This document shows positions 5,640-53,069 of a stretch of 64,000 nt of DNA, piece by piece. The position numbers and the translations under genes were made by a program. This stretch comes from Macrostomum lignano (lineage: Eukaryota). How positions within the stretch are numbered: position 1 is the stretch's first letter; each line of letters starts with the position of its first letter. The stretch lies in the NCBI GenBank assembly GCA_002269645.1, contig NIVC01000037.1, forward strand, positions 310,001 through 374,000. Direction: 5' to 3'. The notes under the pieces are model-generated. The model did not search any database. It saw only the letters and a list, made by a program, of their open reading frames with translations, and was not told where the DNA came from.

Positions 5640-6250
5640 CTCCAACTATGAGACAAGGGGTGCCAACTTTGAGACAAGGAGCGCCAAACTTTGAGACAAG
5701 GGGCGCCGACTTTGAGACAAGGGGCGCCAACTATGAGACAAGGGGCGCCAACTTTGAGACAAGGGGCGCCAACTTTGAGACAAGGGGCGCCAACTATGAG
5801 ACAAGGGGCGCCAACTTTGAGACAAGGGGCGCCAACTTTGAGACAGGGGGCGCCGACTTTGAGACAAGGGGCGCCGAAATTTAAGACAAGAGGCGCCACG
5901 CCCACTTGGAGACAAGGGGCGCCAACTTTGAGACAAGGGGCGCCAACTTTGAGACAGGGGGCGCCAAATATGAGACAAGGGGCGCCAACTATGAGACAAG
6001 GGGCGCCAACTATGAGACAAGGGGCGCCAACTTTGAGACAAGAGGTGCCAACTTTGAGACAGGGGGCGCCGACTTTGAGACAAGGGGCGCCGAAATTTAA
6101 GACAAGAGGCGCCACGCCCACTTGGAGACAAGGGGCGCCAACTATGAGACAAGAGGTGCCAACTTTGAGACAAGGGGCGCCAACTTTAAGACAGGGGGCG
6201 CCAACTTTGAGACAAGGGGTGCCAACTTTGAGACAGGGATCACCAAACTG
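5640..6250. repeat. Minisatellite, 21-bp unit (GAGACAAGGGGCGCCAACTTT), in the predicted 3'UTR intron of brat
   Basis: Direct tandem copies. It accounts for the repetitive ORFs 5627-6286, 5646-6173 and 5691-6251. Confidence 0.95.
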
Positions 6251-6308
6251 AAATCTAAGAAAGAAAAAGCCCCTTAACAAGAGCAATAGAACAAGGCTTA
6301 CCCAGGTC

Positions 6309-14529: not shown

Positions 14530-16647
14530 GCCGCACTAGTCAGCTGTTTCCCTCGCCCTCGCCCTCGCCCCAGGCTTCTGGCTGCCGCTGGGCAGTTGCC
14601 TGTCCCTTCTCGCCTGTCCTCATGGCTTGTCCTTTGTCCGTTTGCTGGTCTGTCTGTCTGTCCTTGTTTGCCCCTTTCGTCTCGTGCTCCCGTTTTGCAG
14701 TGCCCAGACAGCTACGTCTGGCCTGCCTCTGTTTCATTCTCAGCTGTTTGGCATCTCCAAATTTGGAGTGCCGTCCCTGTTTTCCGGTCCCAAGGTCACG
14801 AGTTGCCTTCACTTGTGGGCCTTTTCCCCTTGTCATGTGAGCCAGTCACGTGACAGGGCCTTCTTTTCCTTCCTTAGTCCAAAGTGAAATGATTTCATCA
14901 TTGTACTCTGGGCTCGTGTTTATGGGGACATCACGTGCGCCAGGACCCCTGCCTCCTCTGAGGCAGAACCCGCTCGCTTGTTGCTAAAAATAGCAACAGA
15001 GTAACTCATGACTCTCAGCGGGGGGCTTTCGTGATGGTGCAATCGATGCGGGTCCACCCCAACTGCCAGCCGGAAAAATGCCAGCCGACAATTGCCAGCC
15101 GAGAAAACTGCCAGTCGGAAAACTGCCAGCCGACAACTGCCAGTCGACAATTGCCAGTCGACAATTGCCAGCCGAGAAAACTGCCAGCGAGAAAAACGCA
15201 AGATGTACGCCAGACAAAGCGTTTGTACGCCGGCATACGTATACTACACCTTCCGCAATATGGCATTCAGGATCTAGCTAGAAAGTGTAGACAGCTTTGT
15301 TTACTATTTATTAAATCAGTTAATTATTCAGCAAAACAGGTTACCATTGCATTGTTACAGAAATCAGTTAGCCTAGCTACAAGTTGTTTTGTTTTATCGC
15401 CAACAAAAGTTTGTAAGCTTGTGTGGCATGTGCGCGAATCAGAGCTGGCAACTTTCGGCTCCTGCACAAACATCTTGGTTCAAATTTCGTATTTTAGGTA
15501 GCCTTTGCTCTTTCTTTGAAAGCTTTATTTAAGTTAAGTAATTTAATAGACTTTTCTAGGATTGCGTCATATAGCAATCGCAATCGCAAATTAAATAATA
15601 AAGTAAATGAACTTTCAATACAAAAATATTTACAATAGGCATTACAGAATGCCTTCTCCATCACATATATACTTCTAATGGAAATCTGCAAAAATTAGGG
15701 AAGGGAAGGGCGACATTTAATGCTACCCCACAAGCCTTTTGCTAGCCAAACAGTTTCGTGCTTTTTACTTAGCTAATAAGTAGGCTACAGTAGATTCAAT
15801 TAGCTAGAACTTGTCGGCTGGCAGTTGTCGGCTGGCAGTTGTCGCGGCTGGCAGTTGTCGGCTGGCAATTGTCGGCTGGCAGTTTTCCGGCTGGCAGTTG
15901 TCGGCTGGCAGTTGTCGGCTGGCAATTGTCGGCTGGCAGTTTTCCGGCTGGCAGTTGTCGGCTGGCAATTGTCGGCTGGCAGTTTTCTCGGCTGGCAATT
16001 GTCGGCTGGCAGTTTTCCGGCTGGCAGTTGTCGGCTGGCAGTTTTCCGGCTGGCAGTTGGGGTGCTCCCAATCGATGCTCCCTATAAATGTGGCCCCTCT
16101 CAGGGCTCGGTTCAGTCAACCCCTGTCGCGTTCCCGTTTTCTGCCTCTCTCAGTCAGAGTCTCTAAGTTTGTGTGCCAAGTTTCCGCTTAAGTTTGAACT
16201 CCTAAGTCTCCCGACTTTGCGCGTGCCGTGCTTCTGATTGCTCCCCTGCTATCAATTTAGCAGGCCAGCTTAGATCGCCCGATGCTAGCACCATCGCTCT
16301 AACCCCGCACTAGTCCGGCAGGGACTGCTGACTGTGGACACCTCTGCTTAAGAACTGCTAAATCTGCACGAAGTGCGAGTCTATCTCTATCGTCTTAGTT
16401 ATTTGCTTCTACGAGCTCGGCATCTCACCGAAGGCTGCGACTCTGCGAAGCTGGTGGCAGCACTACCTACGCTACGAGAACTAGTTTCTAAGAAACCGCA
16501 CGCTAGACGCCTCCGCCAGGAGCTGGAAGATCTGTCAGCCCTTCCGAGACAGCCCAAGGAAGCCGCAGACACGACATTGGCGGCAGCGGTCTAGTCAAGA
16601 ACCACAGGCAAGAAACCGGTACTTCACTGGTGGCAGCGGTGGGATTC
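14530..16647 (+). mobile_element. Truncated LTR-retrotransposon 5' end (LTR plus tRNA-Leu-like PBS), interrupted by a MITE
   Basis: TGGTGGCAGCGGTGGGATTC (16628-16647) is complementary to the 3' end of tRNA-Leu and follows ...TTCA. A TATAAAT is at ~16083. The LTR 5' boundary is uncertain, and no gag or pol follows. Confidence 0.55.
15050..16069. mobile_element. Non-autonomous Mutator-like MITE with repeat-rich long TIRs
   Basis: Termini GGGTCCACCCCAACTGCCAGCCGGAAAA and TTTTCCGGCTGGCAGTTGGGGTGCTCCC, with arrays of GTTGTCGGCTGGCA in inverted orientation. Perfect 9-bp TSD AATCGATGC at 15041-15049 and 16070-16078. Confidence 0.88.
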
Positions 16648-17550: not shown

Positions 17551-20500
17551 TATTGAGCTGCTGCCCGAGCAGAGCTGGGACGTCAACTTAGCCTTCTGCA
17601 GAGAGGACGAGCGCCCCCGGACCAAGAGGCATCGAATCTGGGTTCCGGCCAGGAGCGTCGTTACCTCTGCTGACGAGCTCCGGAAAGGACTGCTAGCAGT
17701 CAACCGGGAGCTTCCCGCCGCGGGCCTAGTGGTGCATGACACCCTTAAGCGCACCGACAGCACTGGCTTCACAGCCATCCTGGGGCTGTCGGACGCCTGG
17801 ATGAGGCGTTATCCACACGGCAGCTTCATCAACGTCGGCCTTTGGAAGCTGCGCATCCGCTCCTACGAGGCCGACCCTCCCCGTGGCAGTGAGCAGGGCG
17901 GGGGGGATACGGAGGCGACCGGGGCAGGCGCGAGCTTTTGCCCAGGCTGCCAAAGCACGGCCGCGCGGGTAAAGCTGAGCGCGCTGCTGAGGGCGGAGGC
18001 GACCGACGCCCGGCGCGCAGCACCAAGCGGCGCGGCCTGTACCAGCGCGCAGCTGAGGCGGTCCGCACCGCTAAAGTCACCCAGCTGAGGAGAGAGGTCG
18101 CCGGGACGCCTAGGCGCACCAGTTCGTCCAGGGAGGGTGGGGACGTCCCAGCTGGGCCCAACCCATCGGGGCAGGGCCAACTGGCGACGGACCCGCCTGC
18201 CCAGGCGGCTGGCTGCTCCAGGGCATTGGGCCAGTCTGAAGCGGAGGACCCCGTGGCCGGTGGGCGAAGGGCGGCGAACGCTGCCTATTGCCTTCCGACC
18301 AATCGGGGGCCTTTTGCTGAAGAGGAGCCCATGGACACCGGCGACCCCGACCCGAAGCTGGTGAGCGCCGAGGAGGAGGAGGAACTCCTGGCGTCTGCAA
18401 CACCCGATCTGCAATGATGCCAGCGGCTACCTGGTGTCTGCAGATCAACACCCAGCACTGCGTGGCGGTGTCAGTCAACCTGATGCGCACGACAGAGCAA
18501 CAGCTTCCGGGCCTGGTCTTCGTGCAGGAGCCCTGGATGACTAAAGGTAAGCCAAATAATGTGCCATCTGGCTACCACTGTTTTTGCATGGCGGACTCTC
18601 AGCCTCGCCCAAGATCTCTGGTCTTCGCTGCAAAAGCTTTTGAGGCATGGATGAGACCTGATCTCTCGACTGGGGACATCTGTGTTGTTCAAATCAAAAA
18701 CCTCATTCCCAATAAACCTGTGCTGGTAGCATCTGCCTATTTCCCAGGCGATGCCCCAGTAGTCTGCGACGCACTAGTCAACCTCATTGACTACGCCGAG
18801 TCCCGTCGGTTTGAGCTGCTCATTGCAGGGGATGTGAACGCACACCACCTGCATGGGGCAGCAGGAACACCAATAACAGAGGCGAGGAGCTGCTGGCATA
18901 TGTCAGCAGCACTGACCTCAACTTCCGTAACGTGGGCAATGCACCAACGTTCAATAATGGGCGGTGAGCCGAAGTCATCGACACCACCATCGCCTCACCC
19001 GGACTGCTTTCCGCAGTTACGGGCTGGCGAGTGTGGGACGAGGACTCGCTCTCGGACCACCGCTTTATCCGCTTTTGCATTGGGCTGACCAAACAAAAGC
19101 CTAAGGTCACTTGGTGTCGGAACGTCAGAAATTCCGATTGGGCCGCCTTTGGCTCGAAGCTGAGCCGAGGCCTTCGGGATCTTGACCCCCCCCCAGTGAC
19201 CTATCTGACTGCCAGGTGGTGGATGATCTTGCCTCCTCCCTGGGCGGGGCGATCACCACTGACTTTGAAGCAGCATGCCCTCTAGAAGCCTACAAAGGCA
19301 AGAAATCTGCTCCCTGGTGGAACCCAGAGCTCGGGTCCCTTCGGCGCCGAACCAGGACCCTCCAAAGGCGAGCGCTCAAAACCAAAGACCCATCTGATAG
19401 AGAGGCCTATACCCGTGCGATCCACGAGTTTAAGGGCCAAGTTAAAAGGGCCAAGACGGCCAAGTGGCGCCAATATTGCGAAGGGCTGGAGGGCTCCCGC
19501 CCCGTAGCCCGCGTGGTTAAGGCACTCACCAATGACCGTTTTTCTAAACTCTCTGTTGTGAAGAGACCTGATGGCTCGGTCACAGAGAGATCTGAAGAGA
19601 CTCTAGAGCTAATACTCAACAGTTTCTTCCCTAAATCTCCGACTCAGCAGGGCCAAGGCGAAAGCAGGGCCCCCTGCTCTCAGGCGAAAGCAGGGCCCGC
19701 CTGACCAAACCATGGGAGGGCAAGACCTAGCAAAGTCTATGATCACCAAAGACCGCATTATTAGAGCGGCAAGGTCCTTTAACCCGTTCAAGGCCCGATA
19801 GCATCTACCCAGCGTTCTTGCACGAGGCGGTAAAATACCACCGCTTCCTGGACCTCCTCTGTCGTCTCCTCCGAGCTTGTGTGGAGCTGGGCTATGTACC
19901 AGTTGCGTGGAGAGAGGCCTTGGGTGGTCTTTATCCCCAAGCCTGGAAAGAGCGACTACCAATCGGTGAAGGCCTTCAGGCCTATCAGCCTCACCTCCTT
20001 CTGCCTTAAGCTCCTCGAGAGACTGGTGCTTTGGCGCCTACTTTCGGTCGAGCTGAAGCGCTTCCCACTCTCGCAGAACCAGCACGCTTTCCGCGCGGGC
20101 AGGTCTACCGAGAGTGCCCTCCATGTCATTGTTGACTTCCTGGAGAGGGCCGTTCTTGGCAGCGGTTTTGCCCTCTCGCTTTTCCTGGACATTGAGGGGG
20201 CCTTCGACAACGTCATCTTCGAGGCCTTTTGCAGAGCCCTGGAATCCAGGGCCACGCACCCTCGCCTTGTCCGGTGGATCATGTTCATGATCCGGAACCG
20301 CACTGTTGTGGCCCACCTGAACGGCAGCTCTCTTTCGGCGCCTGTCCAGAAAGGGGGCCCCCAGGGCGGAGTTCTCACCCCCGTTCTCTGGAACATGGTC
20401 ATGGATGAGCTGCTTTGCAGTGATCTCCACGACCCCATTCTCAAGGTGGGCTATGGCGACGATGTGACCGCGATATGTGCGGGCCCCTCGGTTGATACCA

Positions 20501-21388
20501 TCAGAGATCTTCTGCAGGGCTTTCTGGGACGAGCGGAGCGTTGGGCAAACCAATGTGGCCTTAGACTCTCAGAGTCGAAAACCACAGCGGTCATGTTTAC
20601 CAACAAACTGCTCTGTACCATTAGGCGCCTCACCCTCTATGGAAAGGATATTTCCATGGAGAAGCAGGTCCGCTGCCTGGGCCTCACTCTGGACCACAGG
20701 CTTAACTGGACTCCGCACATCAAACTAAAGCTAAAAAAGCCCTGGCTGTCCTGGCTCAGATCAGGCGCGCCGTAGGCACCACCTGGGGGCTCACCCCCAG
20801 GAAGCTGTGGTGGATTTACACTGCCATCATCCGCCCCTCGGTCAGTTACGCCAGCCTCGTGTGGGCCAGCGGCCTGAGCGTCAAAAGCAACCTCGACGCT
20901 CTTTTACAAAATCCAGGGCAGAACTTGCCGCATGACTCTGGGCGCTCCACCCTCTACTCCTTTTGAAGGCAAGAATGCCTTCCTCTGTGCCCCTCCTCTG
21001 GATATTTATATCAAAGGAGGTGGCGAAGAGCACCCGGCGTCTTCTAGATGCTGGGGTGGCCTTCAAGAAAGTGCGGGCCTTTAAGAAGCAGTCGCTTTTC
21101 CCGCACTCTGACCTCTGCCTCAAGGCTCTCGAGGAGTGTGGCGGGCTCAACATCCTCACGGACTCGATCCCAGCCACCCTTCTCCTAAGCCAAAGGTATA
21201 AGGTCACTATTCAGCCTCGACACGAGGCGAGTGACAGCTGGAGCGATTCTGAATTCCACTGTTACACTGACGGCTCTATGAGGCATTGTCTTTCAGGCTT
21301 CGGAGCTTGCGTCTTCTTCAAGGGAGAAGTGGTGTGGAGCTACTCCCAGCACACTGGGCTCAACTCAAGTGTTTTTCAGAGCGAGGTG

Positions 21389-24300
21389 TGCTCCCCCAAA
21401 AGTAGAAAAACAAAATACAAAAAAAACCAAAACCAATCCTTAGACCTTATAACAAACAGGTTTACGAGGCCGCAAATCATACGAGCTGTGGGGCTGGAAA
21501 GTCTCATCTCCAGAACTCAGCCGGGAGTCACAGTCAGTCACCTCAGGTTCACGCAGCTCCGAGTCAGAGCCAGCCTTGGCACCCAGATGAATCGATAGCC
21601 CAGCCTGATCCTCGGATCCAGCCGCCTCGGTCAGCCGCCGATCGGCCTCCGCCTCCAGGCGGCAGCTCCATTGGTTTGCGTGCGCCATCCGCAGTCCACC
21701 ATCTGGTAGGTCAGCTGAGGTCACCAGAGCTGTGTTCCGGCCGTGCTGCACGATGAACTTGGCCGGAACCGGAGCCGTGCCAGGCCGAGCCCTCAGCCAG
21801 ATGGAATCACCCACCTGCTCGGTAATCGTCAGCGGATGGCGCAGCCGGCGTCCCCACATGAGAATGTCCGGCGAACTGGAACGATTCCCGCTAGGCCTGC
21901 TGGTGCGAATGGTTAGAAGCAAATTCTGCAGGAACTGGTCAAATGGGACCACTTTCGTCCACGTCTTCAGCCCGCCTTTGAGACTCCTCACCAACCGCTC
22001 AGCCTGCCCGTTCGATGCCGGATGGTACGGTGGGGTGTGCATCTCCTGGTAGCCGACACTGTTCAGCCACTGCGAGACTCTTTCCGACCTGAACTCAGGC
22101 GCATTATCCGACACTAGCGTCCGAAGCACTCCATTTCTGGCGAACACCGCTCTCAGCACTCTCAGCACACTGCCCGCAGACCTGTCTGGGACCTGGACAG
22201 CTTCTGGCCAACCCGAGTATGCATCAGACAGCAACAGTAGCAAGCCCACTCCTGGCACCTCACAGTGGTCCATGTGGACCCAGGACCACGGCTCGCTCTC
22301 GGATGGCCAGATGTCAATTTTCCGCTGAACCACCGGCCGTCTTTCAGCGCACAGCTGACACCGCTCAACAAACTGACGGACATCGCGAACCAGTCCAGGC
22401 CACCAGAACTCCTTAGACACATGGGCCTTCGTATTTTCCGCGCTCGGGTGCACCTCATCATGCGCGGTCTCCAAAATGCGCCGCCGGAGAATGATCGGAG
22501 GCACCACCCTGGTACCGTGGATGACCAGCCCGTTTTCCACAGACAACGCTTCCCGACACGCTTTGTACGGCCGCTCCAGCTGAGAGACCTGACCCCACCG
22601 GCCTGTCCTGATTCTCTGCTGGAGTCTTTAAAGCAGTGAACACCGGGAAGTACTTTCTCTCAGCTCCTCCACGGTAACCAAGCCTCCGTCAGTGATCAAC
22701 TCAGTCTGGTGAACCGACTCCGTCTCAGGATCGAGGTTTTCAAAGCTCAGCCTTGATAGAGCGTCAGCATCCTGCATCTTCTTTCCCGGCACATATTCAA
22801 TCTCGTAATCATAAGCCGATAGCCGCAGAGCCCACCGGGTTAGTCTGGCAGAAACAGTCTTTGGAAGATTCATTGCAAGGATTCAGAATAAACTTCAAAG
22901 GCTCGTGATCGGTCTGCAGAATGAATTTCTTCCATAGCAACATTTTCCGAGCTCGTTCAACCGTCCAAACAATAGCCAGCGCTTCTCTCTCGATGTTTGA
23001 GTAGTTGGTTTCTGCCTGTGTGAGCGCCCTGGACATGAACATGACGGGATGTCCAGACTGGACCAGCACCGCGCCCAAGGACTCTCGCTCGCATCAACTC
23101 GAAGACAGACAGGCGCGGAAACATCCAACGGCTTGATGCACGGGTTTGAGGCCAGACTCCTTTTGACCTCCGAAAATGCCGCCTCAGCCACCGCGTTCCA
23201 TTCAAAGACCCGGTCACCGCGGCGAAGCTCCTGAAGAGGCCGACATTTCTCAGAAAAGTTTGGAACCAGCCGTCCATAAAATTGAGCCAGTCCTAGAAAT
23301 CTCTCCAAATTTTTCTTGGTCTTCGGCACCTTGACATCCATCACACGTTTCACCATGCCCGGATCGGGTTTTATTCCTTCATCATCAATAATGTGACCAA
23401 GAAACTTCAGGCTGTTGGCCTCCATCACGCACTTCGCTTCGTTGATCTTGACATTTGCGGCCTTTAACTTGTTGAGCACCTGCTCCCTAATTTTCTGCAA
23501 CTCTGCCCGGCTCGCAGCACCGATCAGCACATCGTCCTGATATACTATGACACATGGATGGTCTCCCAGGAGCTTTTCCATCACACGTTGAAAAACAGAT
23601 GGCGACACCTTAATGCCATACGGCAACCGGTTAAACCTGTAGCAACCAAACGGAGTGTTTATGGTGGTCACCGCTTTCGATTCCTCATCCAGGGGAACCT
23701 GATAGTACGCATCCGATAGGTCTAACCGACAGAACAGCTTCTTGTTGGCCATTTTCGAAAAGGCTGTCTCAATCGAGGGAGTGAGGTTCGGTCTGGTCTT
23801 GAACCAACCGATTAACAGCCGAATAATCTCCACAAATTCTCACGGATGCCCGATCTGACTTCACCGTCACCACAATTGGACTGCCCCTTTCCGACGACAT
23901 CACCTTCTCAACGATTCCAGCACTTTCCATCAAGTCCAGCTCCTTCTTAACCAAGTGCTTCAGCGCTAAGGGCAGTTCTCTGGCTGCCTGGAAAATTGGC
24001 TTAGCTCCAGCACAAAGACGGATCTCTCCCGTAGCACCAGATATTCCCAACAAGCTCTCATACCTGTTGCTGGCGGCTGACTCATCAGAACTGGCATGGT
24101 GCACCGGTGCGAGGACCAGCAGATTCCGGCCGAGCAGCCTAAACTCCTGTTGGCAATCGATGACGGGCAGCTCTGCCGCCTTGAAGCGGCCGTTGTTGCC
24201 AGTGGTCTCCACCAGGCATTCCAGAACGCCCATCTGTCTCATAACGTGTCCGTCATACGCCAGCATGCGCGACTTCGCCGACTTCAGCGGGGGCCTTCCG

Positions 24301-25599
24301 AGCTCATTCCAGATCCTTCGTGAGATTAACGAGCAGGAGGCACCGCTGTCCTTCTCCATCAGCACTTCTCTGTGATTGATTTTCACAGTGCAGAACTCGG
24401 CAGGCTTTCCTTCTCCACAGTAGAATACGGGCTCATCACAATAGGAGTCTTCTGGACTCAGCTGAGTGCGGACTGCTTCAGCTGGGGCAGCGAAGTGGGT
24501 CCTGGCACCGCGGCACACACGGGCAAAGTGGCCAGGCTTTCCACATTGATTGCAGGTGGCTCTCAGGGCTCGGCAGTCAGCGGGCTTCTGGTGCGATCTC
24601 AACCCGCAACGCTGACAGCGCTGGTGTCCGAAGTTCTGCTTCTGCCTCATAACCGAATTAACGTTGGCAGAGCCGGAGCTATCCGGATGGCAGTGAGCTT
24701 CATTAGCCGTAGTCAGACCCGCGGTTGACAGCGACCTAGCCTGGTGCACCACCGAATCCACGAGAGTCGAGTGAGCAGCAGCCAGGGACCCAGCTGAAAA
24801 GTTGCTGACCATCAGCAGCTGCTGAACATATTCTGTGACCTGATCGACCGTCAGTTCTTGAGTCACTTCACGTTCGAGCACCTTGTTCCTGATGATGTCA
24901 GTTGGCCAGACCGGCAATGAGCCGCATCTTGATGAGCGCTTCGGCGGGGTCCGCTCCTTCCTTTTTCAGGCTCTCGAACTCGCATACGACGGCTTGCTCC
25001 CTGAGACGAGCGGCATAGCTGGTGACGGTTTCGCCTTCGGCCTGGCGCATAGACATGAAGGCTGTCCTCTTAGCGATCTGCAGTTTCTTCTTGGGCTCCA
25101 CAAACGTCAGTAGGCATTGCTTGATTTCAGACCATTTCATCTCAGACGGGGTTTTTGGAGCAACCAGCTGCTTGACTTTTATGAGCTCAGCGACCCCGAG
25201 GCAGCCCATGAAAGCGTCGGTCAACGCTCGTCTCTCGTCGGTATCTTCGACTCCTTTGGATCTGGCCTGGGCGTCAAATACTTCAACCCAGGCGCGAAGC
25301 TCATCTATGTTGCTCAACGGCAGCGTCTCTTTCAATTTGGTGCTCATTATCCTGCTTGCGACGCCAAAATGTTAGTCTAGGAAAACTGAGTCAAGTCATG
25401 TTTGCAAGCGAAGGAGAATACCATTGAAAGATCTCTACCGAAGTGACGAAAGTATTTATTTGACTACATAACACGAATCCACGTACATTAGTAGACAAAC
25501 GCCATCCGATTGGCTGGGGGTTAAAACCATGCACACTGGCAAGCACAAATGTACACAGGTAGGGGTAAAACGATAGCGCGCAAGAATGATCAGTCACGG

Positions 25600-25644
<45 letters not shown>

Positions 25645-25680
25645 TGAAACAACATGAAAAACCAAAGTACAACCCCAACA
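21389..25680 (-). mobile_element. Ty3/Gypsy LTR retrotransposon (Mag-like gag-pol) with a single LTR, inserted in the LINE RNase H
   Basis: gag from 25347 with two CCHC-type knuckles (CQRC..H..C, CNQCGKPGHFARVC), protease DSGASCSLI, RT LDLSDAYYQ..YQDD, RNase H VDAS..YSNIEREALAI..TDH, and integrase H..H..WWPGL..C..C, D..D(NAPEF)..E. 5-bp TSD AGGTG at 21384-21388 and 25681-25685. Frameshifts are present. Confidence 0.95.
25370..25680 (-). repeat. 5' LTR (311 bp) of the Gypsy element; tRNA-Ser-like PBS at 25350-25366
   Basis: On the element strand the LTR reads TGTTGGGG...CTAACA and contains a (CT)n tract. It is followed after TTT by TGGCGTCGCAAGCAGGA, complementary to a tRNA-Ser-like 3' end, just before the gag ATG. 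Confidence 0.85.
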
Positions 25681-26766
25681 AGGTGCTTGCCATCAGCTCC
25701 TGCGCGGCAGAGCTGCGCCGAAGGCAGCTTAGCGGTCGGAAATTTATTTTTCACTCTGACAGCCAAGCAGCCCTTCGGGCCCTCTGCCGCAGCAACACCA
25801 GCTCCAGGTCCGTCCTGGACTGCAACACCCAGCTCAACGGGCTTGCGCTAGGCAACCAGGTGGAGCTCAGATGGATCCCGGGCCACGCGGTTTCCTCGGC
25901 AACGAGCGCGCTGACCTGCTGGCCAAGGCTGGCTCCGCCGGCGCGCTGTTAGGGCCAGGCCCGGGAGCCCCCATCCCCGCCTCGGTGATCAACTCCCGCG
26001 TTAAGCGCTGGACTGACTCCGAGCATCTCCGCAGGTGGCACGACACCCGGAATTGTAGGCAATCCCGTGCGGCCGTCCCCTGCCCCTACCCTCTCCTGCG
26101 TAGAGCCCTCCTCAGGCTCAACCGCAGACACCTCAGAGCAGTTAGCATGGCCCTCTCCGGGTATGGCTGCTTCTCTCGCCACCGGTTCCTTCAGGGCCAA
26201 GTACCCGAGGAGCGGTGCCCCTTCTGCCGCTCAGGCAGTGAAAATGCCGAGCACTTTATCTGCCACTGCCCTGTCTTCACAACAAGGCCAGGTTCACTCA
26301 CCTCGGGCCAAACCCGGTTCTCTCCGACGTTTGCAGGCCCGAGAGCATCCCGCTGCTCGCCCGGTACCTCAGGGACACGGGACGAGCTGATTTCTTCTCC
26401 ACCGTCGGTGAGGAGGACCGCGCTGCAGGCGAGACCGACGGGTCCCCCTGAGCGAAATCACTTCAACGGAAGTCATTGGCCTGGTCGCCAGGGGCTAGCG
26501 GAATGGGTGGTCCCCTCCGCCTCCTCGCTGCATCCGTCGGACGCCCCCTGCAGCTAAGTCAAGTAAGTCAAGTCATTGGTGACTATCTTCTTGCACACAA
26601 ATGCAGTGGTCCATATTGTCACAATTAAAATCGAGCATTGAAAAATTAACTGAATGCAACTTCAATTTCTACTCTACCATTCTGCGGCGCATTGAGTTAA
26701 TATGCATCACAACACAATAGACAAAAAACTCAATCGATTGAATCCAAATGAGATAATGTACATGCT

Positions 26767-26965
26767 CAGGGACGTCGCCATGGATTTTATGGTGGGGGGG
26801 GGACAAATTAAGCCAAGAATTCGACATGGTACATCTACATGACTAAATTGTGGCACTCATTTTGGCGCCGCAGGCACTCATTTTGGCGCCGCAGGAATTC
26901 CTTTTAGCGCCGCATGCACTCATTCTAGCGCCACAGGCACTCATTTTGGCGCCACAGGCGCTATA
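26767..26965. mobile_element. hAT-like MITE end with 5 copies of a 21-bp repeat
   Basis: CAGGGACGTCGCCATGG..poly-G start and (GGCACTCATTTTGGCGCCGCA)x5 at 26853-26960. The partner end was not found. Confidence 0.35.
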
Positions 26966-27908
26966 TTGATATAACTGGCGCGAGCTAACAAAAAACCTTA
27001 AGTAGCATATTACAACTTTTTAGCCGCATTGTGAATGACCATTTGAATGGAACACTCCTTCACTGTTCTTATCATGGTGTCAGAGGGTTTGGCTGCGAAG
27101 AAAATTTCTAGAAGTTCAGCTTGCATAATTAGAGTTTCTTTTGTTCATTGTGCATGTACAAACAATGCATACAGCATATATCCTACACTTTCGCAGCAAA
27201 AAGTGCAGTGTATAAAAGACTCAGTATAAAATACGATTCAACCGAGATTTTTCATGTTTAGTCGCTTTAACAATTGTTCTTATTGTCTCAACATTAAGCA
27301 GGTGAGACTAGTACCGTGAAAAAGCATATATGTATATGTGTGGTGACTGTGAGGCTTACCACTTTGGCTTATTTTGAAATCGGAGTAAACATGCAAACTC
27401 AATGCAATGGATGACAAATTACCGCCCTGTTTCAAACCCTCCCCCCTCATATGTCACCGAACTGACTGTCGCCGAATTGCCTGTCGCCGAGTCAACCAGC
27501 TGTCGCCGAATTAACTGGTTCCCTGATTTGTCTTTTGGTCTAAATCGCCTTATGTCCATCCACTCGATCACTTTGCTAGAAGTTTTATTGAGGTGTCAGG
27601 TGTGAAATACCAAGTACTAGTTTTTTGTCTACAGACTGCTCACCAGACCAGACTGCTCTACAGACTGCTCAGTACAGAGACAGATGTCAGTTTAAAATAA
27701 AAACGGCTTGCCAAGCGGGCTAAAAATTGTCAGTTTAAACAAAATGAATGTGGCTTTATATCTAGTATGACAAGAAACTGTTTAAAAAAGGCTTATATGT
27801 ATTTTTTTTAACAATTAATGTTATATGTATTAATCTATACGTAAATACGAGCTATTACAATCGGCACGCATGGGTTAACCAAAATTAATTTCTGTCCACA
27901 CGTTATGG

Positions 27909-28172
27909 GGCCTTTTCATATTGCTTGCTCTGGTTCCAGAACCAGAACCAATTTGTGAAGTATAACTTTTTGTCTCCATAAGTAGAGGGAGATACGTGCT
28001 ATAAAGTTTATATTATTGAATGACAATCGCCACGAAGAAAGTGGAAAATTGTGCTAAGTGAGGTTGTTAATGTTAAGGCAATCAAATATTCAACAGAATT
28101 AAATAGTAATACTGCTGTTTTTCTTGGAATTCCGAACCGATTCTGGTTCTAGAATCGGTAATATGAAAAGGG
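27909..28172. mobile_element. Small MITE (PIF/Harbinger-like TIR)
   Basis: GGCCTTTTCATATT..GGTTCCAGAACC and GGTTCTAGAATCGGTAATATGAAAAGGGC are imperfect inverted repeats. Confidence 0.45.
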
Positions 28173-28214
28173 CTAATATCCTCCAGGCCTGTGCAAGCTG
28201 CCTCCCTCCGTCTG

Positions 28215-31200
28215 TCTGTAAAGCTATATTCATATTTCCTATGTGCCTACATTAAGGATGTCAATGGAGGTAGAGGTTTAGATTGTGAGCAGATTTTAGC
28301 AATATAAGTGCATAAAACATTTTTAAACATGGTCTACTTTTTCTGATAATTTAAATATACTAAATATATATACTATAGACAGTAGACTATAGCTAAGATT
28401 GCATAACAAGCAGAGTACATACATCCCAGAAGTGATTGTTATATCTAATTTTCACAAAGTTTTATTTTTTTATTTCTCATGAGCCTAAATGCTATCAAAA
28501 TCTAGCATCAAAATATATTATGTACTTTCTACTAGTACTATATAGATGTATAAAGTTGAGTATCTAGATACAGTTTATATCATTGAGTATTAATTATCTA
28601 ATGACTAGGCCCTTCAATATTTGCATTGAACTCTACACTTCACATAATGAATAAAGTTTAGAATTAAAATTGAAACCTTTGTCAATTCTTAGACTCAGTA
28701 CAAAAAGTTTTATATTTTCAAATAATAATTTATTTTTTTAAATAATAGCCAAAACAAGAGCCATTTATAATAAATAATAGTCAAAAGATGCAAGAATTTT
28801 CCTTATAGGGCCTATATATAGTATATATGGCATATAATATGCCTAGCATTCTTGGCAATATTAGGTAATAATCTTGGTAATTATTTTTTATCTGAATTTA
28901 ATAGACATTAGGTCTAAGGCAATTTCATTTATAAAAGGCAATGACTATTTATTCGTTATTGGATGAATAACATAATTATTATTTGTCTGGTACTGGATAA
29001 ATAAAAGTGAAGTTATTTGTCCAGCATAGTATGGATGTGGATATATAATAAAAACTTGTAAAATACAAAAAACTCAAAAAAGTATATATAGTTCACTTTT
29101 AGGCTAGAAACAGAAAATATTTGTTATGATTAGATAGTGTATTTCTTAGAAATTCTAGAACTTTAGGCAAAAAATACTTGGGCATAGTCTTATATGTCAT
29201 TGCCCAATCTAGTAGATTGTAGCTCAGAACTTGAATCAAATTAATTTTTCCTTATGCTAATATTTATGTAGACTTATCTTTACTTATCTTCTTATCTTTT
29301 ACTTATCTTAGACTTATATTCTAACTTCGCTATTGCTGCTAATTAAGATTATATAGTTTTCAGTCTTATTGTTTATTAAAGTTGCATTTGTAATATCATG
29401 TATGTATGTGTGTATGTATACTTATAAATAGTATGGCTACAACTTTCTGAATACTTCTGAATTTTGAAAGTAGGAGTACAGATATGAATGCTAATTTACT
29501 CCATTTTTTGCAGTTTCAATTGCTTTATCTATGACTACTGTTGTTTTTTAAAACTATTGGCTAAAGAAATCATTGCCGCTATTATCTTGGCTATTGAATA
29601 ATCATTCTCTTCCCATACCTATATTTGTGTAAAAACATGCCAAAAGTGTTACATATCTTCAGGTAGTACATTTATACACAAGTAATATGCATATCTTTGC
29701 AATATAGCTAGGACCATAGAGTCTACCCTATTGCAGCCAATGGCCATTGCTATTATTGTAGACAGTGTTTAGTGCAAATTCTCTTGGTAGTATAGCTATA
29801 GGCATAGTCTAGTGTTATTTAGTATAGAAAAAAGGCAAAAGAGGTGTCTGGCATGGTTTAGACCTTAGTTGCTATAGGAGTCTTGTCTTAGACTTTGAAG
29901 CAGCTGTATAACAGATGGTTTGCAAGATCTAGCTATTGGTCACTATAACTGGCTGTAAATTTAAGGTGCATATGCATACTACATATAAAAAGCCCAATGT
30001 ATTCTATATAAAAGCAAGTATACATATAGACCATATTGCAGCCAAGGTCTAAATTTTATTAAACACCCTCTTTCCTATGCCAAACTGCACTAGCATACCA
30101 AACTACACCTATATTACTGAAGGCCAATCTATTCTAAATATTATCCAAGATAATAGCCATTGACTGCAATAGGGTATATAAATGCTATATTTTTCATATG
30201 ACAATACATATACAAATACACAGTGATTAAAATAGTTTAATAGTTTGCAACCAACTAGGCAGTGAAAGACTTTCTAAAGCAGCTAATGTTAATTTGCTGC
30301 CTTTTTTGCCTAGTCATTCACACAGCATTTGGCTACTTGGTGCAGCAAATGTAGGACCAATGGGTGGACCACATATATAAATATATCAAAGCCACTTGGT
30401 TGGACCCCCTGATTTGGAATATTAAAGATGTTAGCATCCATAATAAGCAGAGCATATGGACAAACAACAAGGTCAAAGGCTAGTGCTGTTATTTGAAGAC
30501 ACATGTACAGAGGCCAGCTATAGCTATATATGCTTCTAGAGTTGCTCTATAAAGAGGCTTTGTTGGCAGATGTGCAGGCCTCTTTTTTTATAGACATCTT
30601 TATAGGCAAAGAAGGCATCTCTTATAGATGTCTAAATAAATTATAGCTAAGTAAACTAAAACAATATACAGTCAAATGTCTTGTTTAAAGACATTGTTCC
30701 AATAGGATTGGAAATTTAATCCCTAGTCTTCAAGTTATGAGTTTTATAAAGCATTTGCATAATGATATAATAGTGTAAATAGTAATAGTATAATAACAGT
30801 ATAATAATATATATATGGCTATATGGCTATATATGCCATATATGCCATATATGGCTATCCTGGCATATATGGCTAAGAGACCAAGGGATAAAGAATGCCT
30901 AATGGCTTAATAAACTAAAAGCCAAGGGTTTACATACAAAAAAAATTAATCATGGCATATATACAAATATGTTTTTTATATGCCAATATGCCAGTTCAAG
31001 GGTGCCATAGATCATGTTGCATGCATATATCTATACACAAAAATAACATCTATAATTAAAAGGTATATATGCTTGTATAATATATATTAATCATCTTAAT
31101 CTTTTTCCCAAAATCCAAAAATGATCATATTTGACTTTCATTGCTAGATAGACTCTTAGACCCTAAAAAGCACCTTAATAGAAATATATAGCCAACTAAA

Positions 31201-32345
31201 ATTCCAAGAATTGCCTTTCACCCTAGAATTAGTATAAAAAAGCTTGGAAATAAAATACCCTAAAGGCTAAGGTTTCTAAAAAGACAGCATCCAAAAAGTC
31301 ATCATTACTAAGAACTAAAATAGCAGAATACTAACCTCAAGAGAGATTTTGCATCTCAAAGGGAAAATTGGCAATAGTCAAGATTATAAAAATCTGATAA
31401 ATCTAATATTTGAAATTCTATTAACCAATCTGCAAAGCATAGTAATAAAGGTCATAACTTAGTAACTATTTTGGATTCACTTTTGTAGTAATTCTAGGTC
31501 TTAGATATCAATATATCTTATCTTAGTGACAAAGCTTCTTTAATCAACGAGTCTTTAAAACCTTTAAAAGTGAAATAGCAGGTACCAGGGTAACAGATAA
31601 GTAACAAGTGACAAAAATAAATAGGTTGCTATATCAGATGAACAATTTCTTGTAATCAAGCTTGCTGAGCATTTCTGTGCTAACTTTCTACTAATATACA
31701 CTTATTAACACCTTCAAACCTGCTGGCTACTCTGCAGCCAACTGCCATCTGCTGAATGCCCACAATAGCTGTCTGTGGCCAGCACAAGTGGCACCTTGCC
31801 ACTTACTCTGAGAAAACCCACTGTGGCTACAGAGCAGCCATCAAATAAACAACACTTTTTTATACACAAGCTCATTAGGTTGAATCTATGGATAATACTT
31901 TGCAGCTATTAGGGTTTTCTAAGAGTGAGTGCTGTGACTGCTTGTGGGCAGACGCAGATGTCTGGCTACTGCAGTCAATGGGTTTTCTTAGAATGAGTGC
32001 AGAGGCTTGAGGTACAGAAGTGGTTAAAGGCTTGCAGTCAACTAGGCTTCTTTGCAATTAGTTAAATTTGGTAGGAATTTGAAAATATTACTATAGGTAT
32101 CAGTATATATTACATTGTTGAAACAATTATAAAAATTCAAATGGATTTAATAAAGCTATCCTAGTTTACAATTAAACAAGTCAGTGTATAGTTTCTAGAT
32201 TCATGGCTCTAGGATTCTATAAAGAGACCAGTTGATTGCTGGCAGTAAACATTATTGTAAACCAAATGGAAAATATTTCATCTAGATTCTATATATTCAT
32301 GAACTGAGCCATCAAACCATACTACTTATTAGCATATGAATTGAA
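28215..32345. other. CpG-void, TpA-enriched block
   Basis: About 5 CG seen by eye in ~4.1 kb, including moderately GC-rich stretches (31700-32050). Hand count for 29701-29880: CG 0, TA 25, AT 16. Confidence 0.85.
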
Positions 32346-35300
32346 CTTTCGAACCTAAATTTTGACAAAGCAATTATTTTGTTTTGGTCTTTTATAGTCT
32401 TTGTATCCTGTGAACTAGGTCATATCCAACCAGTTGACTTAGACTTCTGTGTTGTTTTTTGCAGTGGCAGAAAATCGTTTACTGTTCTGTCATAAGTACC
32501 GGTATATACATTGTGTACATAACTGTACCTGTACTCATACATGCGCAACAGTCGGCCGAGTCGGCCGATCCGGCCGACCGATTTGGCGGCCAACCAAGGA
32601 AGTCGCAAAAATGCCCACCCGAAAACGCCCACTACTTAGTATTAGTACTAAGTAGCTGACGAGGCATTTTGACTTAATAAGACAGTCATAGTTACTCTTG
32701 CCGTTTACCCAAAGTTACGTTAATTTTTTTGTTTTTTTTACATGTAAGTCGCATTTTGGCCAAAAACTACGTCGCATTTTTGTTAAAACTAAGTCGCAAG
32801 GCCGACCGAATTTTGGAGGTTGCGCATGTATGCCTGTACTGCTGATTAATTGGCTGGCAGTCACTTTTTTGTCAGCAATTTTGGCATTGCAGACCCTTGT
32901 CATTTTTAGACTTTTTAGTATATGGATAGATATTTAGACTTTGAATGTCAATTTTTTGTATAAACTTCTTAGCACAAGATAAGAACGTGATAAAATTGAT
33001 AAACTGTTTGCTCTAAAAACTTTCCTGGTTCGACGCCTTGTATTTTAATGTACAAAATCTAAGTCGTCTAAAATGAGTAAGTGTTTGCAAACTGTCCATT
33101 TTACGTACCTGGCCTAGACATTCCTATTCTAACGTGTGCATGGGTGCTGCCCCTGCACTGTTTGGGTCGTCAAACGACCGCTAAGGGCACAGGCAGACTG
33201 TCTAGCTTGGTCTGCACTGCACATTAGCAAATGCAATGCAAGCCTCTTGGCCCCTCCCTTTGTCCGTCTGGGTGAGTCACAGCAGCAATGAGTGTTCTTT
33301 TATCGAAAAAGTTGGTATAGCAGTCTAGTCTAGACTATAATATAACAGCAACAAAATACGCAACCCAGATAAGTAAAGCCACGCCATGAGGTCAGGGTGC
33401 GTCAGATGGCGCACCGCAGCGCAAGCAAGCCAACGGCGTCGCTTAGCAGGTTAAACTATATGGACCCTAGGTTAGTGAGCACTGAGCAGCAGTAGAACGT
33501 CCTGTACCCTGTCGAGGCTGGAGGTAGTATATAATAATATAGACTATTAATCAGATAAAGGTCCCTAAACCATTGTCATTTTTTCCCGATGCCGATACTT
33601 ATGTACCCTCAGTTTCATTTTTGTGTTTTCTCAAAGTAAAAAAGCCTGCGTCATCCAGTACTGTCTAATTTTAGCACTTCCCATCTACCACAACACAGCC
33701 CGCTGCTGTTGGAGGAAAGCTAGAAGTAGTTAATCACTGCTAATAATACCTTATAGTCTTGGCCTTGGAGAAGCAGAAGACACGACTAGACTAAGTTGTA
33801 TATGCTATAATACTAAAGTATGTGCAATACGATCCAGGGGCCGTGGGTCTGGATTGGATTTGTGGGCCCTCTCGTACAGACTTTGTTTTGTGGACTAGTC
33901 TCGGCCCTCTGTAGGGTCCCTCTGTCTGTCTGTCGGTTTGTTAATTTAGTCTGCTTAAAATGTTTAACCGGGGGTCTTGTCTGTGGACTGTGACAGATAT
34001 AGCTTGTGCATTGTATTTGTTATTGGCGCTGGCCTGGACGGTTTATAAGAAAAATTGGACGTTTCGCACTGGTTCAGTCTGCCCCGAGGGCCCCGGCGTT
34101 CTCGGCTTCTTGCTTTCTACCTGCCGGCTGTCGTCGCTTCTTTTGCATACGCCTAGGGTTCTGGGCCCCCCAGCCGCCCTCCTCACCCCTCTGGCCCGGC
34201 TTTTCGCTAAGCTGTGAAGGCAAGCGAAGAAAGGGTGCTGGAGTGGTGAGGGCTGTCTGTCTGTCTGGGTCCCCGTTAAGGCCGTACCGTATGCGTCAGC
34301 TCTGGGTGGGGGTGTAGCCCCACCCTCCGCGCTTGTCTGAGAATATAAAACGAGTGCCCCGGACGCGGCTGCTTTTTTACCAATTGGGGACAACACACAG
34401 ACGAGAGATAGAAAGAGAAACAGGAGGACGCTCAAATAAATCCAACGTGTCCTTTCCCTCAGCCTTCAGACATTTTATTAGGTCCTGATTGTAAATGCGC
34501 GGCAGCATTTTTTCAAAGAACAGCCCCGACAGGTGAAGTGAATTCGCAAGGTATTTTTTCAAGTGAGTTTTTTGCCAGCTCGTTTCGGCTTATTACGGTT
34601 GATGTTTTCCGTATTTCATCTAGGTTTATTAATAGAATCTGACGTCAGTGTAGCGGGGGCGGGGGTAAACCCTCCCTTCAAAATCTGTCCCCTTGTCCCG
34701 TTTTCCGAAATTTCCCTTGCCACTTCGTCGTTTCTTGAACTCTCTTCCCAATCCCAATGTTCTGTCTTTCTGTCCCCGTGTTATTCGCGCTGACAGTCGC
34801 CGCCAGTAAACCTCACTCCACACACAATGCAGCCACTGCTAGATTCCCTAGATTATATTAAGACTAGAGAACCGGCAAGTCGCGCTGCCGTGCATAAATT
34901 GCTGGCAATGGGAAGCACTGAGAGGGGGGTTGAAATGAATTTTGATCCGCTCTTAGCCAATGCCATGCCTATTAGGCTTGGGGTAGCTGCTCTGTGGTTC
35001 TATCTATAAATGTACTGCTTTAGCCTCCAAGCAGCCATTTGCTTCGCGGCGTCCATTCAACCTCCTCTCCTTCCCCCCAGATCTCTTTCCTCCCCTCTAA
35101 CTCTTCCTGTCCCTGTCTGCCACATTTCCCCTTTTTCCCTTCCCAGCCCAATGGCAAGTCCCTTCAGCCCCGAGCAGGCCGCTAGGGGACTTTATAAAGC
35201 CCCTAACTTTGGGGCCGTCAGCGCTGTTGGAATTAAGGATTTGCTAGTGGAGAGCGAGAGAGCGGAAAAGCGGTGGCAGGAGGCCCGTCATTCACTGCGA

Positions 35301-37932: not shown

Positions 37933-40110
37933 CAATGTAAAGAATCAGCGGTCGCAGCACGGGACAACGATTTGTCTATGGCTCGCGCCTACCGGCGCTC
38001 GCCAGACAATCGTTGCAAGGACAACTTGATAACTCAGGACCGGAAACGAGCCAATTCATGGCGAAAAAAGTATGAGGCTCGTTTAAAAGCATTGTTCTAT
38101 GGCCCATCCGTATGCGCATGCTTTCAGTTGCCAATGTATACTCGTATCATATTTGAATTTTTGATAGGCAGTCAGAAGGCGGCTGCAGGGTCGGTTTTCT
38201 TAAATGTTGAATAGTTTTATTGCATGTTACGCAGCATCCCCAGAGCATTGCTTCAGGGAAGTAAAACTCGCCAACGACAGCAAACAATTTCCGCACTCGC
38301 AAAGCACATGACGGTGATCGCAGCGAAATGAAGCATCCGAAACAGAGGCAAGCAAAATTGAACAGCCACTTACCAAGAAGAAAAATCGGTATCAGCCTTA
38401 GAACAAATGACTTACCGCCGAACAATGGCTTCAACATTATTGCGAGCACTGTTCGAGCAGTTTTGTTATGATTGTCTGACGCTTGGCCGAGCAGATGTTG
38501 GCACCGATAGCGAATCGATGGCTGCACATACATTTCATCGGAAATCAACACACAAGACTTATGCTGCGGTTTCGGTTTGGCAAATGTGACCTTTACGATC
38601 TCGTGTGCATCATTTTCAGTGCCAATCTCTCCTAGACCAGCCAACTGAGTGCGTAATGTGCCTTGATGGGGCAAGGAAGGAGCGTCTGTGCATGCGCGTA
38701 TGCAGAACTGCTAATCAGATAAAGCAAAGCAGATTGGCGCATAGTGGCAATGTCGTATCGTCGATTGTTTGGGTGCGTTGTGGCGAGCTCGAGTAGCTTC
38801 AGGATGAATGTAACCGATGTGTCCGGTACAACTCCATCGTGGTTAAAGGCAATAGAAAGGTTCTTAGATAATGCCCTCAACTCACTTTCGACGTCCACTG
38901 TAGAGTTTTTACAACGATTTATGATAGCTTCAAGTTGCGACCAATACTTTAATGTTGGTTGAAATCCAAGCAGATCTCAAACCGCAACTGGTGAGTGTAA
39001 CCGAAAGCATCGCACGGAATAGTTTGGTGAAACGAAAACTCGCAGAACCATTTCGGCATTGGTGCTTAACGAGAAGATAAACACCTCCTCTTGAACAATG
39101 GTAACGATAAGCTGATGTGCTTTGATGACGTCTAAACAGTGAATGGATGCTCGGAATTCAGTCCACGATGGCAGCGTGTCACGCTCTCGAAATTCTACTA
39201 GTTCATCTTGGAAAAGGCATCGTTCGGACAACAACACGCCCCTTCCCTCAGCCTGTCGACTGGCACGCACTGCAATATCCAAGCACGCATCTTAGTGTTT
39301 CGTTTCGACCCTATTTGATGGAGTGCAAATACGCTCGAATATTTGAATTAAAGCAGTAGAAATTCACAAACTTTGTGTTTGAACGAGGCAGGACTGCGGG
39401 ACTCCGTCGAAAACTGATGGTGGATGTAGCGGCCTTTCATTTCTTCCCTTTTTTATCATTGGTGCATCTTGAGGCCAGTGCTTAGCACACACGCCCATGT
39501 AGTCTGTCACGGTCTAAACAACAACAAAATTGTTAATGAATTCATGTGGCCAGGCTAAATCTGATTCACAAAGCACATTTGAAGAAAGTCTTACCGTCAG
39601 TTGATTAGGCAGTGACAGTCGCCAAGCCTCTCGTTCAGTTGCATCTTTAGGAAACGAAAGTCTTACCGTCAGTTGATTAGGCAGAGACAGTCGCCAAGCC
39701 TCTCGTTCAGTTGCATCTTTAGGAAACGAAAGTCTTACCGTCAGTTGATTAGGCAGAGACAGTCGCCAAGCCTCTCGTTCAGTTGCATCTTTAGGAAACG
39801 AAAATACTGCAACATTCCGATCACGGTTGCTATTTTAGTTTGCACAACAGAAAATGACGCTGAATTTTCTCGGCATGATATTTAGTTTTAGCAAGAATAA
39901 AAGTTCTCTCTCTCAAATGCAAGTGCATGCGAAGAACTCAATTTTCAGCTCAGATTTCTTCGCTTTTGTAGCTTTGGATGGGCCATGGAACAATGCTTTT
40001 AAACGAGCCTCTTACTTTTTTCGCCATGAATTGGCTCGTTTCCGGTCCTGAGATATCAAGTTGTCCTTGATCGTTGTCACGCACTGGGACCGCTGATTAT
40101 TTATCCATTG
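37933..40110 (-). mobile_element. Internally deleted P-superfamily (THAP, Galileo-like) DNA transposon with long TIRs
   Basis: TIRs at 37933-38109 and 39976-40110 (CAATG..AATCAGCGGTC..GACAACTTGATA.CTCAGGACCGGAAACGAGCC..GGCCCATCC). Minus-strand remnants include THAP-like VCAKHWP (~39490), RRYDIATMRQSALLYLISSSAY and CVLISDEMYVQPSIRY..ARTVLAIMLKPLFGGKSFVLRLIP. The catalytic C-terminus is missing, and no TSD was found. Confidence 0.8.
39585..39802. repeat. Tandem repeat, ~72-bp unit x3, inside the THAP element
   Basis: GAAAGTCTTACCGTCAGTTGATTAGGCAG..CATCTTTAGGAAAC occurs three times. Confidence 0.9.
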
Positions 40111-40201
40111 TTCCACAGTTATCGAATATTACCATAGACATCTGGATTCGAAACATTAATCGCAGAGTATATTTGTGAATAGATACAGAACTGCAAGTAT
40201 A

Positions 40202-41196
40202 TCTATTAAACTTCGGATTAGTCAAAAGTGAGTTCAAATTCGTCAGCGTATGCAAAACTATATAGCGCTCAATCAAGGGGAAGAGATTGAGTGTCTATGG
40301 TAATTTTTTAGAGAAAGTGACTTCGAATTCGTCTAAGTAAGTAAAATTCGTCAGTGCAAATACAGCCTAATCAGAAAAAGTGTTTGCTTTGTCCATGGTA
40401 AGAAAAGAAGGTGTCTATGGTAAATTTAAGTAAGAAAGTGAGTGAATTTCGTCTGTGGAAAGTAGCCCAATTTCTTGAAACCTTCATTTCATGCTTTGAT
40501 TGTTGTCAGAGATGCCCTACATGACAACAAACAGTCAATGTAACGCACAAAGTCCCGTCAAGCCGACGACTGATTGCCTGAGTTGTCACAGCAGGAGCAG
40601 CAGGAAAATCTGCAACAAGCTTTTGCTGCATTTCTTTGAGGGTCACAGTCGGCTTCTCTTCCACATACCTGGTCAACGCCCCGAGCATCTCCTCAGAAAA
40701 CTTTAGTCTCACTGCACCTCCATGCGCGTTAAGATCAATCCTACCCTCATCAACATATCTCTTGATGATGTCACTGGCAGTTGTCCTCTTGATATCCAGT
40801 TCAATTGCGAGTTGTCTCCAGTCTCGTCCTTGTTGAAAACATCGCACGAGTCTAGAGCGATCCACAGACGAAATTCTCATGTAGGGCATCTCTGACAACA
40901 ATCAAAGCATGAAATGAAGATTTCAAGAAATTGGGCTACTTTTCCACAGACGAAATTCACTCACTTTCTTACTTAAATTTACCATAGACACCTTCTTTTC
41001 TTACCATGGACAAAGCAAACACTTTTTCTGATCAGGCTGTATTTGCACTGACGAATTTCACTTACTTTGACGAATTCGAAGTCACTTTCTCTAAAAATTT
41101 ACCATAGACACTAATTCTCTTCCCCTTGAGCGCCATATAGTTTTGCATACGCTGACGAATTTGAACTCACTTTTGACGAATACGAAGTTGAAAAGG
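40202..41196 (-). mobile_element. Tc1/mariner(IS630)-like foldback derivative with ~320-bp inverted arms
   Basis: Arms 40202-40522 and 40877-41196 are near-perfect inverted repeats, each flanked by TA. Both include the transposase 5'UTR and ATGCCCTACATG. Confidence 0.85.
40506..40901 (-). CDS. Truncated Tc1-like transposase, DNA-binding (HTH) region only
   Basis: MPYMRISSVDRSRLVRCFQQGRDWRQLAIELDIKRTTASDIIKRY..HGG..KFSEEM..YVEEKPTVTLKEMQQKL..TTQAISRRL is a paired-like/homeodomain-like HTH. There is no DDE domain. Confidence 0.7.
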   Translation of the reverse strand: MLSEMPYMRISSVDRSRLVRCFQQGRDWRQLAIELDIKRTTASDIIKRYVDEGRIDLNAHGGAVRLKFSEEMLGALTRYVEEKPTVTLKEMQQKLVADFPAAPAVTTQAISRRLDGTLCVTLTVCCHVGHL

Positions 41197-53041: not shown

Positions 53042-53069
53042 GGGCGGGCCCGCGGAGACTGCAGTCTGG

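Follow-up and report, generated by a model that had tools for sequence, protein, structure and literature searches.

Insertions with a single long terminal repeat that end at the polypurine tract in a Ty3/Gypsy family of Macrostomum lignano

A one-LTR element inside a LINE

The window analyzed in this study is a stretch of 64,000 nucleotides from Macrostomum lignano (GenBank assembly GCA_002269645.1, contig NIVC01000037.1, positions 310,001 to 374,000 of the forward strand). It contains a Gypsy retrotransposon of 4,292 bp, read directly from the window letters on the minus strand (21389-25680), which interrupts a long interspersed nuclear element (LINE) and carries one long terminal repeat (LTR) only. 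On the minus strand, the order of parts is target site duplication (TSD), 311-bp LTR of the form TG...CA, TTT, primer binding site (PBS), gag, protease (PR), reverse transcriptase (RT), RNase H (RH), and integrase (IN) in several broken frames, 51 bp, a polypurine tract (PPT) with its end (TTTT-GGGGGAG-CA), and again the TSD. The coordinates of all parts are collected in Table 1.

An earlier interpretation, made from the letters alone and referred to here as the sequence-only reading, had described a single 311-bp LTR between perfect AGGTG duplications. This was confirmed by the direct read and by a 125-nt contig of run X1 (21342-21466, 0 mismatches), which bridges the joint between element and LINE extending 47 letters into the LINE and 78 into the element; run X1 possibly represents the same sample as the window DNA. 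The joint of the window element was found on four genome contigs. As also claimed, the 3' LTR is wholly absent, with no second LTR copy anywhere in the 64-kb window and no LTR remnant in the 888 nt downstream of the element. The empty site restores the LINE frame: the flanks, translated apart, read ...SVFQSEV (left) and LAISSCAAEL... (right), with the frame interrupted between them, and an empty LINE site that runs on after 21388 is present in contigs of runs X2, X5, and X6. The gap of about 50 bp between the integrase stop (21440) and the TSD, pointed out in the same reading, measures 51 bp but is nothing unusual, since the internal region aligns end to end with that of two-LTR copies.

The Pfam matches on the minus strand follow the order gag and then PR-RT-RH-IN, with those for gag and PR below the cut-off. 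A tRNA PBS follows the 5' LTR and a PPT precedes the 3' LTR. Two direct TG...CA LTRs are found at 11 of the 15 sites of the family but not in the window copy. The family is a member of Ty3/Gypsy, and the window copy is a variant insertion product. The closest named proteins are M. lignano entries and K02A2.6-like proteins, the latter of which we take to be linked to the Mag clade. On this basis, the element is likely of the Mag type.

Table 1. Features of the one-LTR element and its host LINE (window positions)
Feature	Positions	Strand	Basis or remark
Left part of host LINE, with endonuclease-like region, RT, and beginning of RNase H-like region; frames broken; approximate start	18321..21388	+	PF00078 E 3.8e-28; PF14529 E 0.027 only
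TSD, left copy AGGTG	21384..21388	+	Direct read; empty site in run contigs
AGCA at element 3' end, putative stand-in att end	21389..21392	-	Read and family comparison; normal copies go on with G and 3' LTR
PPT GGGGGAG with T run upstream	21391..21401	-	Directly before 3' LTR in two-LTR copies
pol end, integrase (zinc-binding domain and core)	21440..22627	-	Pfam PF17921 E 1e-16, PF00665 E 6e-11; K02A2.6-like relatives
RT and RNase H start, frame broken at both ends	22895..23839	-	Pfam PF00078 E 4e-28; open reading frame list
gag zinc knuckle, aspartic protease, RT start	23769..24965	-	PF00098, PF13650, PF13975, weak, below cut-off
gag N-terminal part	24898..25347	-	PF03732 E 0.0013, below cut-off
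PBS, matches tRNA-Ser 3' end	25349..25366	-	TTT spacer of 3 nt at 25367-25369
Sole LTR, 311 bp, TGTT...AACA, contains (TC)n run	25370..25680	-	Read and family comparison
TSD, right copy AGGTG	25681..25685	+	Direct read
Right part of host LINE, with remainder of RNase H-like region and C terminus; approximate end	25681..26450	+	Frame continuity; empty site

About a quarter of the family insertions that reach the polypurine tract lack the 3' LTR

Other copies were collected by a search with the 3' end of the element. Of 59 candidates, 40 were scored and 30 loci were kept: 23 extend to the PPT, 3 are partial, and 4 belong to sister families. Fifteen of the 23 PPT-reaching loci continue through AGCA-G-TG into a 3' LTR, whereas the other 8 stop exactly at AGCA. 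After merging by flank, these loci represent 15 sites, of which 11 have two LTRs (2 of them as tandem dimers) and 4 have one. The share of one-LTR products is, therefore, 4/15 independent insertions, or about a quarter.

The search for further one-LTR copies with intact TSDs, proposed in the sequence-only reading, was thus positive, with four sites in all (C37/C3641, C522, C1565, and C1306/C564). Both ends were read at each of them, and each has a single 5' LTR. Their 5-bp TSDs are perfect and differ from one another (CACCT, GCTAG, ATTTA, and TCGAC on the element strand), their flanks are unrelated, and no LTR remnant was found at any of the four except a 19-nt match on the opposite strand at C1306. 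These insertions consist of one LTR and the complete internal region, with the opening at the PPT/U3 joint. Among the family 5' ends examined, which are part of the total and include two loci that are internal fragments, there was no copy without the 5' LTR.

The TSD is short and of fixed length in the family: 5 bp at 4/4 one-LTR sites, at 10/10 two-LTR sites with both ends available, and at 6/6 solo-LTR sites. The eleventh two-LTR site (C4967) was seen in parts and is also one of the six solo-LTR sites. At this site (TSD GCATC), located in a tandem repeat, the solo LTR and forms with internal sequence occur on different contigs (L318, L319, L124, and L023; C4779, C46, C5149, and C4967).

Some copies show rearrangements of their own. 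Tandem dimers of the form LTR-int-LTR-int-LTR within one TSD occur at 2 of the 11 two-LTR sites (C4469, about 24960-33820, L038 and L039; C558, about 44430-53150, L049 and L050), and their units differ by 3 (C4469) and 1 (C558) substitutions. An origin of the C558 dimer from the 1-LTR circle proposed below was considered and is not supported: its first two LTRs differ by 1 substitution and the third by 5 to 6, which fits later unequal recombination. In the copy on C29 (L043:1173-1892), about 720 bp with a 7-bp overlap lie in gag and are absent from the same insertion on C843; they are likely a nested transposon.

The one-LTR copies arose independently in a young family

In a tree of 19 internal regions, the one-LTR copies occupy four places. 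A single clade of one-LTR copies was rejected (p-AU 4.3e-7), with 4 changes on the tree, ruling out a separate single-LTR lineage in which such copies descend from each other. Their scattered distribution indicates a recurring outcome instead of a lineage. The one-LTR copy at C1565 pairs with the two-LTR copy at C1122 (support 99/98) at a distance of 0.13%.

LTR pairs could be compared at 10 loci. They showed no substitution in 8, one in another, and three in the last. Such near-identical pairs point to a young family, which leaves little time for later LTR loss. The family carries two PBS forms, matching tRNA-Ser(AGA) and tRNA-Ser(CGA). C1565 and C1122 carry different forms, as expected if the tRNA primer rewrote one of them.

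The joint between PPT and LTR

The sequence-only reading had assumed that the PPT/LTR junction would form a CATG joint. This did not hold. When the PPT context of other copies was inspected, as that reading had suggested, the normal joint proved to be AGCA-G-TG, with a 1-nt spacer, in all 15 loci that keep the 3' LTR. The true ends of the element are AACA on both sides, which AGCA matches at 3/4 positions and GGCA at 2/4. A better match to the true end, AACA-TG, is located inside the LTR, 29 bp from its right end, and was used as an end at 0/11 two-LTR sites.

Three families with a GGCA joint were available for comparison. Their 3' LTR was missing in 0/23, 0/12, and 0/20 loci (0/55 in all, about 37 sites), after 4, 6, and 0 partial or foreign rows, respectively, had been dropped. 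A changed joint was seen in 2 of the 12 loci, and a small deletion across the joint in 1 of the 23. The third of these families (C827:94300, L276-L295) is young and has a true CA-TG (CATG) joint; 20/20 of its loci keep the 3' LTR. The closer resemblance of AGCA to AACA may explain the absence of such insertions from the GGCA families. Taken together, the 0/55 loci and the unused internal AACA-TG suggest that neither CA alone nor a good motif alone is sufficient, and thus that the PPT/U3 joint is special. Use of the PPT CA by integrase is consistent, on sequence grounds, with the CA end, the 5-bp TSD, and the difference by site between this family and the three GGCA families (Fisher p 0.005, post hoc).

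A sister family shares the AGCA-G-TG joint. After one weak match was dropped, the LTR is retained in 12 of its 13 loci (10 flanks), and the remaining locus stops at AGCA, with unrelated DNA beyond. That locus is a 238-bp 3' fragment without a 5' end on C942 (L122:5500-5737), which ends exactly at PPT-AGCA. The fragment adjoins a 76-bp minisatellite that replaced its 5' part.

The PBS of the window element is common to many unrelated LTR families. It was found in two tRNA-Ser forms at 120 genome sites, and near-identical copies differ in form. Of the 100 sites listed, the 60 outside the three families already assigned were examined. A second LTR was present within 7 kb in 41 and not in 19; 9 of the 19 are truncated, either internally or at a contig end, and the other 10 have no pol match and were not judgeable. 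No further case of an intact PPT end and TSD without a 3' LTR occurred among the 60. A candidate from a second family (C309/C884/C1170, L176), with an apparent TSD beside a purine run, was rejected: its true LTR is about 148 bp, its PPT joint is GA-TG, and the copy breaks off within pol, where another repeat follows. An open scan for a TSD next to a purine run recovered 0/4 positive controls.

Proposed mechanism and alternatives

We propose that these insertions were made by the element's own integrase acting on a circular reverse transcription intermediate with one LTR, whether closed, nicked, or partly unwound, with AGCA serving as a stand-in end; we assign this reading a probability of about 0.62. 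In the established retroviral scheme, the plus strand of the circle is interrupted at or near the PPT/U3 place. Second-strand transfer yields a noncovalent nicked one-LTR circle, which is then sealed or unwound to linear two-LTR DNA, and in Drosophila the circular products are chiefly 1-LTR circles (bioRxiv 10.1101/2022.09.25.509424). In such a circle, the PPT end would face the true U3 end across one base, making the joint a nearly symmetric CA-N-TG. On the U3 side, integrase would cleave behind CA in the usual way; the plus-strand CA may be supplied by the nick at which plus-strand synthesis started or by a second cleavage, as at HIV circle junctions (PMC4372172, excerpt). The 5-bp TSD, the integrase footprint of the family, would then result from strand transfer, and the spacer G would be removed during repair. 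Lacking a 3' LTR, the product likely cannot be copied again by the normal route.

That integrase inserted one-LTR DNA by one route or another is very probable. In this respect the sequence-only reading, which had integrase act through the CA of the PPT, is supported by four polyphyletic insertions with the same end and different TSDs; the circular nature of the substrate is what we infer. A finished linear two-LTR cDNA could yield exactly the same product if integrase mis-cut it at the internal AGCA-G-TG and inserted what remained without the 3' LTR. Integration is established to use linear DNA as its substrate (PMC11054761, excerpt; this word marks sources available in part), and a second integrase site before U3 has been proposed to free the 3' LTR in polypurine tract mutants of human immunodeficiency virus (HIV) (PMC11680205, excerpt). 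However, the better-matching AACA-TG near the right end of the LTR remained unused at all 11 two-LTR sites, and the true right end of a finished molecule should compete with the internal site. We regard this route as less probable than the circle, but as a possible one. A circle might also have looped out of a chromosomal copy by LTR-LTR recombination, leaving a solo LTR as its partner, and have been re-inserted by integrase without new reverse transcription. The six solo-LTR sites with 5-bp TSDs imply that such circles are made, and the joint would be identical. Yet C1565 differs from its nearest two-LTR relative at a tRNA-templated PBS base, which fits reverse transcription, although the true parent may be missing, and excised circles should be rare and would not be delivered together with integrase. 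This origin appears improbable.

Slightly less probable still is the later loss of the 3' LTR from normal insertions through a deletion running from the CA that follows the PPT to the CA that terminates the LTR. The spacer G would disappear with it as well and the TSD would survive, and internal deletions are common in the family (C564, C528, and C1900). It would, however, have to hit the same pair of break points on four occasions, using 2 bp of microhomology, whereas the internal deletions observed all differ in their ends. Partial loss from the LTR start was seen at no two-LTR site, the mirror deletion between the two TGs at 0/15 sites, and C1565 is only 0.13% away from an intact relative. 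The sequence-only reading had listed a precise deletion through TG microhomology, along with assembly collapse, as alternatives to its own proposal. An assembly error is the least credible explanation. The assembly is redundant, with the same site on up to four contigs, and small indels occur between contigs. Nevertheless, the joint is present on four contigs and is bridged without mismatches by the run X1 contig, the four sites have different TSDs, and collapse of two LTRs would give a solo LTR and not a one-LTR element. Neither reads with a 311-bp LTR at 21389 nor an otherwise normal family with junction heterogeneity at this copy, the two outcomes that the sequence-only reading had named as contradicting it, was found.

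Several points weigh against integration of a 1-LTR circle. The evidence is fossil, consisting of integrated copies, and no circle or other intermediate of the family was observed. A plus-strand start at CAG would match the 3-nt TTT of the opposite end and would leave no CA at the nick. In HIV, new integration did not seem to draw on 1-LTR circles (PMC4372172, excerpt). The difference between AGCA and GGCA joints was drawn post hoc and depends largely on a single family, and the TSD of the sister-family fragment could not be checked. The census counts are a lower bound, and, taken alone, the 4:0 ratio of 3'-LTR to 5'-LTR loss falls short of significance (p 0.125). At C1565, the second junction checked, a contig of run X5 spans the joint with 30 letters on the element side, one below the bridging threshold.

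Relation to known systems

The family resembles Ty3/Gypsy (Ty3/Mdg4) elements of the Mag clade in its gag-PR-RT-RH-IN order, TG...CA LTR, tRNA PBS, PPT, and 5-bp TSD, but differs from them in that 4/15 insertions carry the 5' LTR only and terminate at the PPT. In M. lignano, Mag comprises 78 of 137 families, more than any other group (PMC12801592, excerpt); the main text of that article, as available, makes no mention of single-LTR copies, circular forms or extrachromosomal circular DNA (eccDNA), or TSDs. Solo LTRs and tandem arrays, both of which are present in this family, likewise show an unusual LTR number within one TSD pair (PMC11899658 and PMC11042837, excerpts). Unlike the one-LTR insertions, they have an LTR at each end, derive from homologous recombination or annealing, and do not place a PPT against the TSD.

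The 1-LTR eccDNA of HMS-Beagle, mdg4, nomad, and IAP has the same content, one LTR and the full internal region, and comes from the nicked circle of second-strand synthesis (bioRxiv 10.1101/2022.09.25.509424; PMC12951756, excerpt). There it is an end product kept from integrating, whereas here the same content is chromosomal and flanked by a TSD. At the junction of HIV-1 2-LTR circles, integrase opens a symmetric CA...TG joint to give integrable CA-3' ends (PMC4372172, excerpt). That junction, however, consists of two true ends and restores a normal provirus, while in the present family the PPT forms one side and the outcome is a one-LTR insertion. In HIV-1 3'-PPT mutants arising under integrase inhibitors, the PPT end becomes AGCA(GT) directly before U3, which is an integrase cleavage motif, and excision between two sites was proposed to leave a 1-LTR template (PMC11680205, excerpt; PMC5974467). 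These mutants are drug selected and tied to replication without integration, and the available part of PMC11680205 contains no one-LTR provirus with a TSD. By contrast, the PPT of this family ends in the motif naturally, and the product has been integrated into the germ line. We found no report of one-LTR insertions that end at the PPT and carry a TSD, in a search that left older and subscription journals and supplements outside its range. The element belongs to an ordinary Gypsy family; its insertion product is not ordinary and is apparently undescribed.

The integration of circular retroviral and retrotransposon DNA has been debated since 1984 (PMC11054761, excerpt). HIV 1-LTR circles were long called dead ends (PMC11912779, excerpt), and recent work in flies describes 1-LTR circles as a sink that protects the germ line and is kept from integration (PMC12951756, excerpt). 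This family has repeatedly given rise, in nature, to products of the structure that integration of a 1-LTR intermediate should leave. We lean slightly toward the view that 1-LTR circles are not dead ends: where the PPT of a retrotransposon ends in an att-like AGCA one base before U3, the joint of PPT and U3 in the circle would act as an att-att site, and a second integration route starting from the circle would account for about a quarter of the germ line insertions. The associated sequence rule is simple (AGCA-N-TG, yes; GGCA-N-TG and GGCA-TG, no), can be computed in other genomes, and has a motif that mirrors the one gained by HIV PPT mutants under integrase inhibitors. If this view is true, one-LTR proviruses may be widespread wherever the joint has the AGCA-N-TG form, and annotation that needs two LTRs would miss such copies or file them as truncated. 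The products are probably sterile by-products, so that their effect would be mutational load and not a new life cycle.

Host LINE and other repeats in the window

The RNase H label of the host LINE is tentative and based on motifs; Pfam gave no match for its RNase H pieces. A second, related LINE piece of 140 nt is located on the opposite strand (42465-42604) and is 71% like the 3' part of the host LINE (26033-26172). The window further contains a foldback of about 1 kb (40198-41200) with nested inverted arms of 75, 189, and 69 nt that are 92 to 97% complementary, as well as an element of about 1 kb (15050-16069) whose inverted ends are arrays of a 14- to 15-nt unit. Inverted arms of 94 nt (97%), 1.9 kb apart, mark a possible DNA transposon at 38016-40069. 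Many minisatellite arrays with units of 8 to 46 nt occupy the regions 1-1000, 5600-6300, 8000-9200, 45200-53500, 56800-59500, and 63200-64000.

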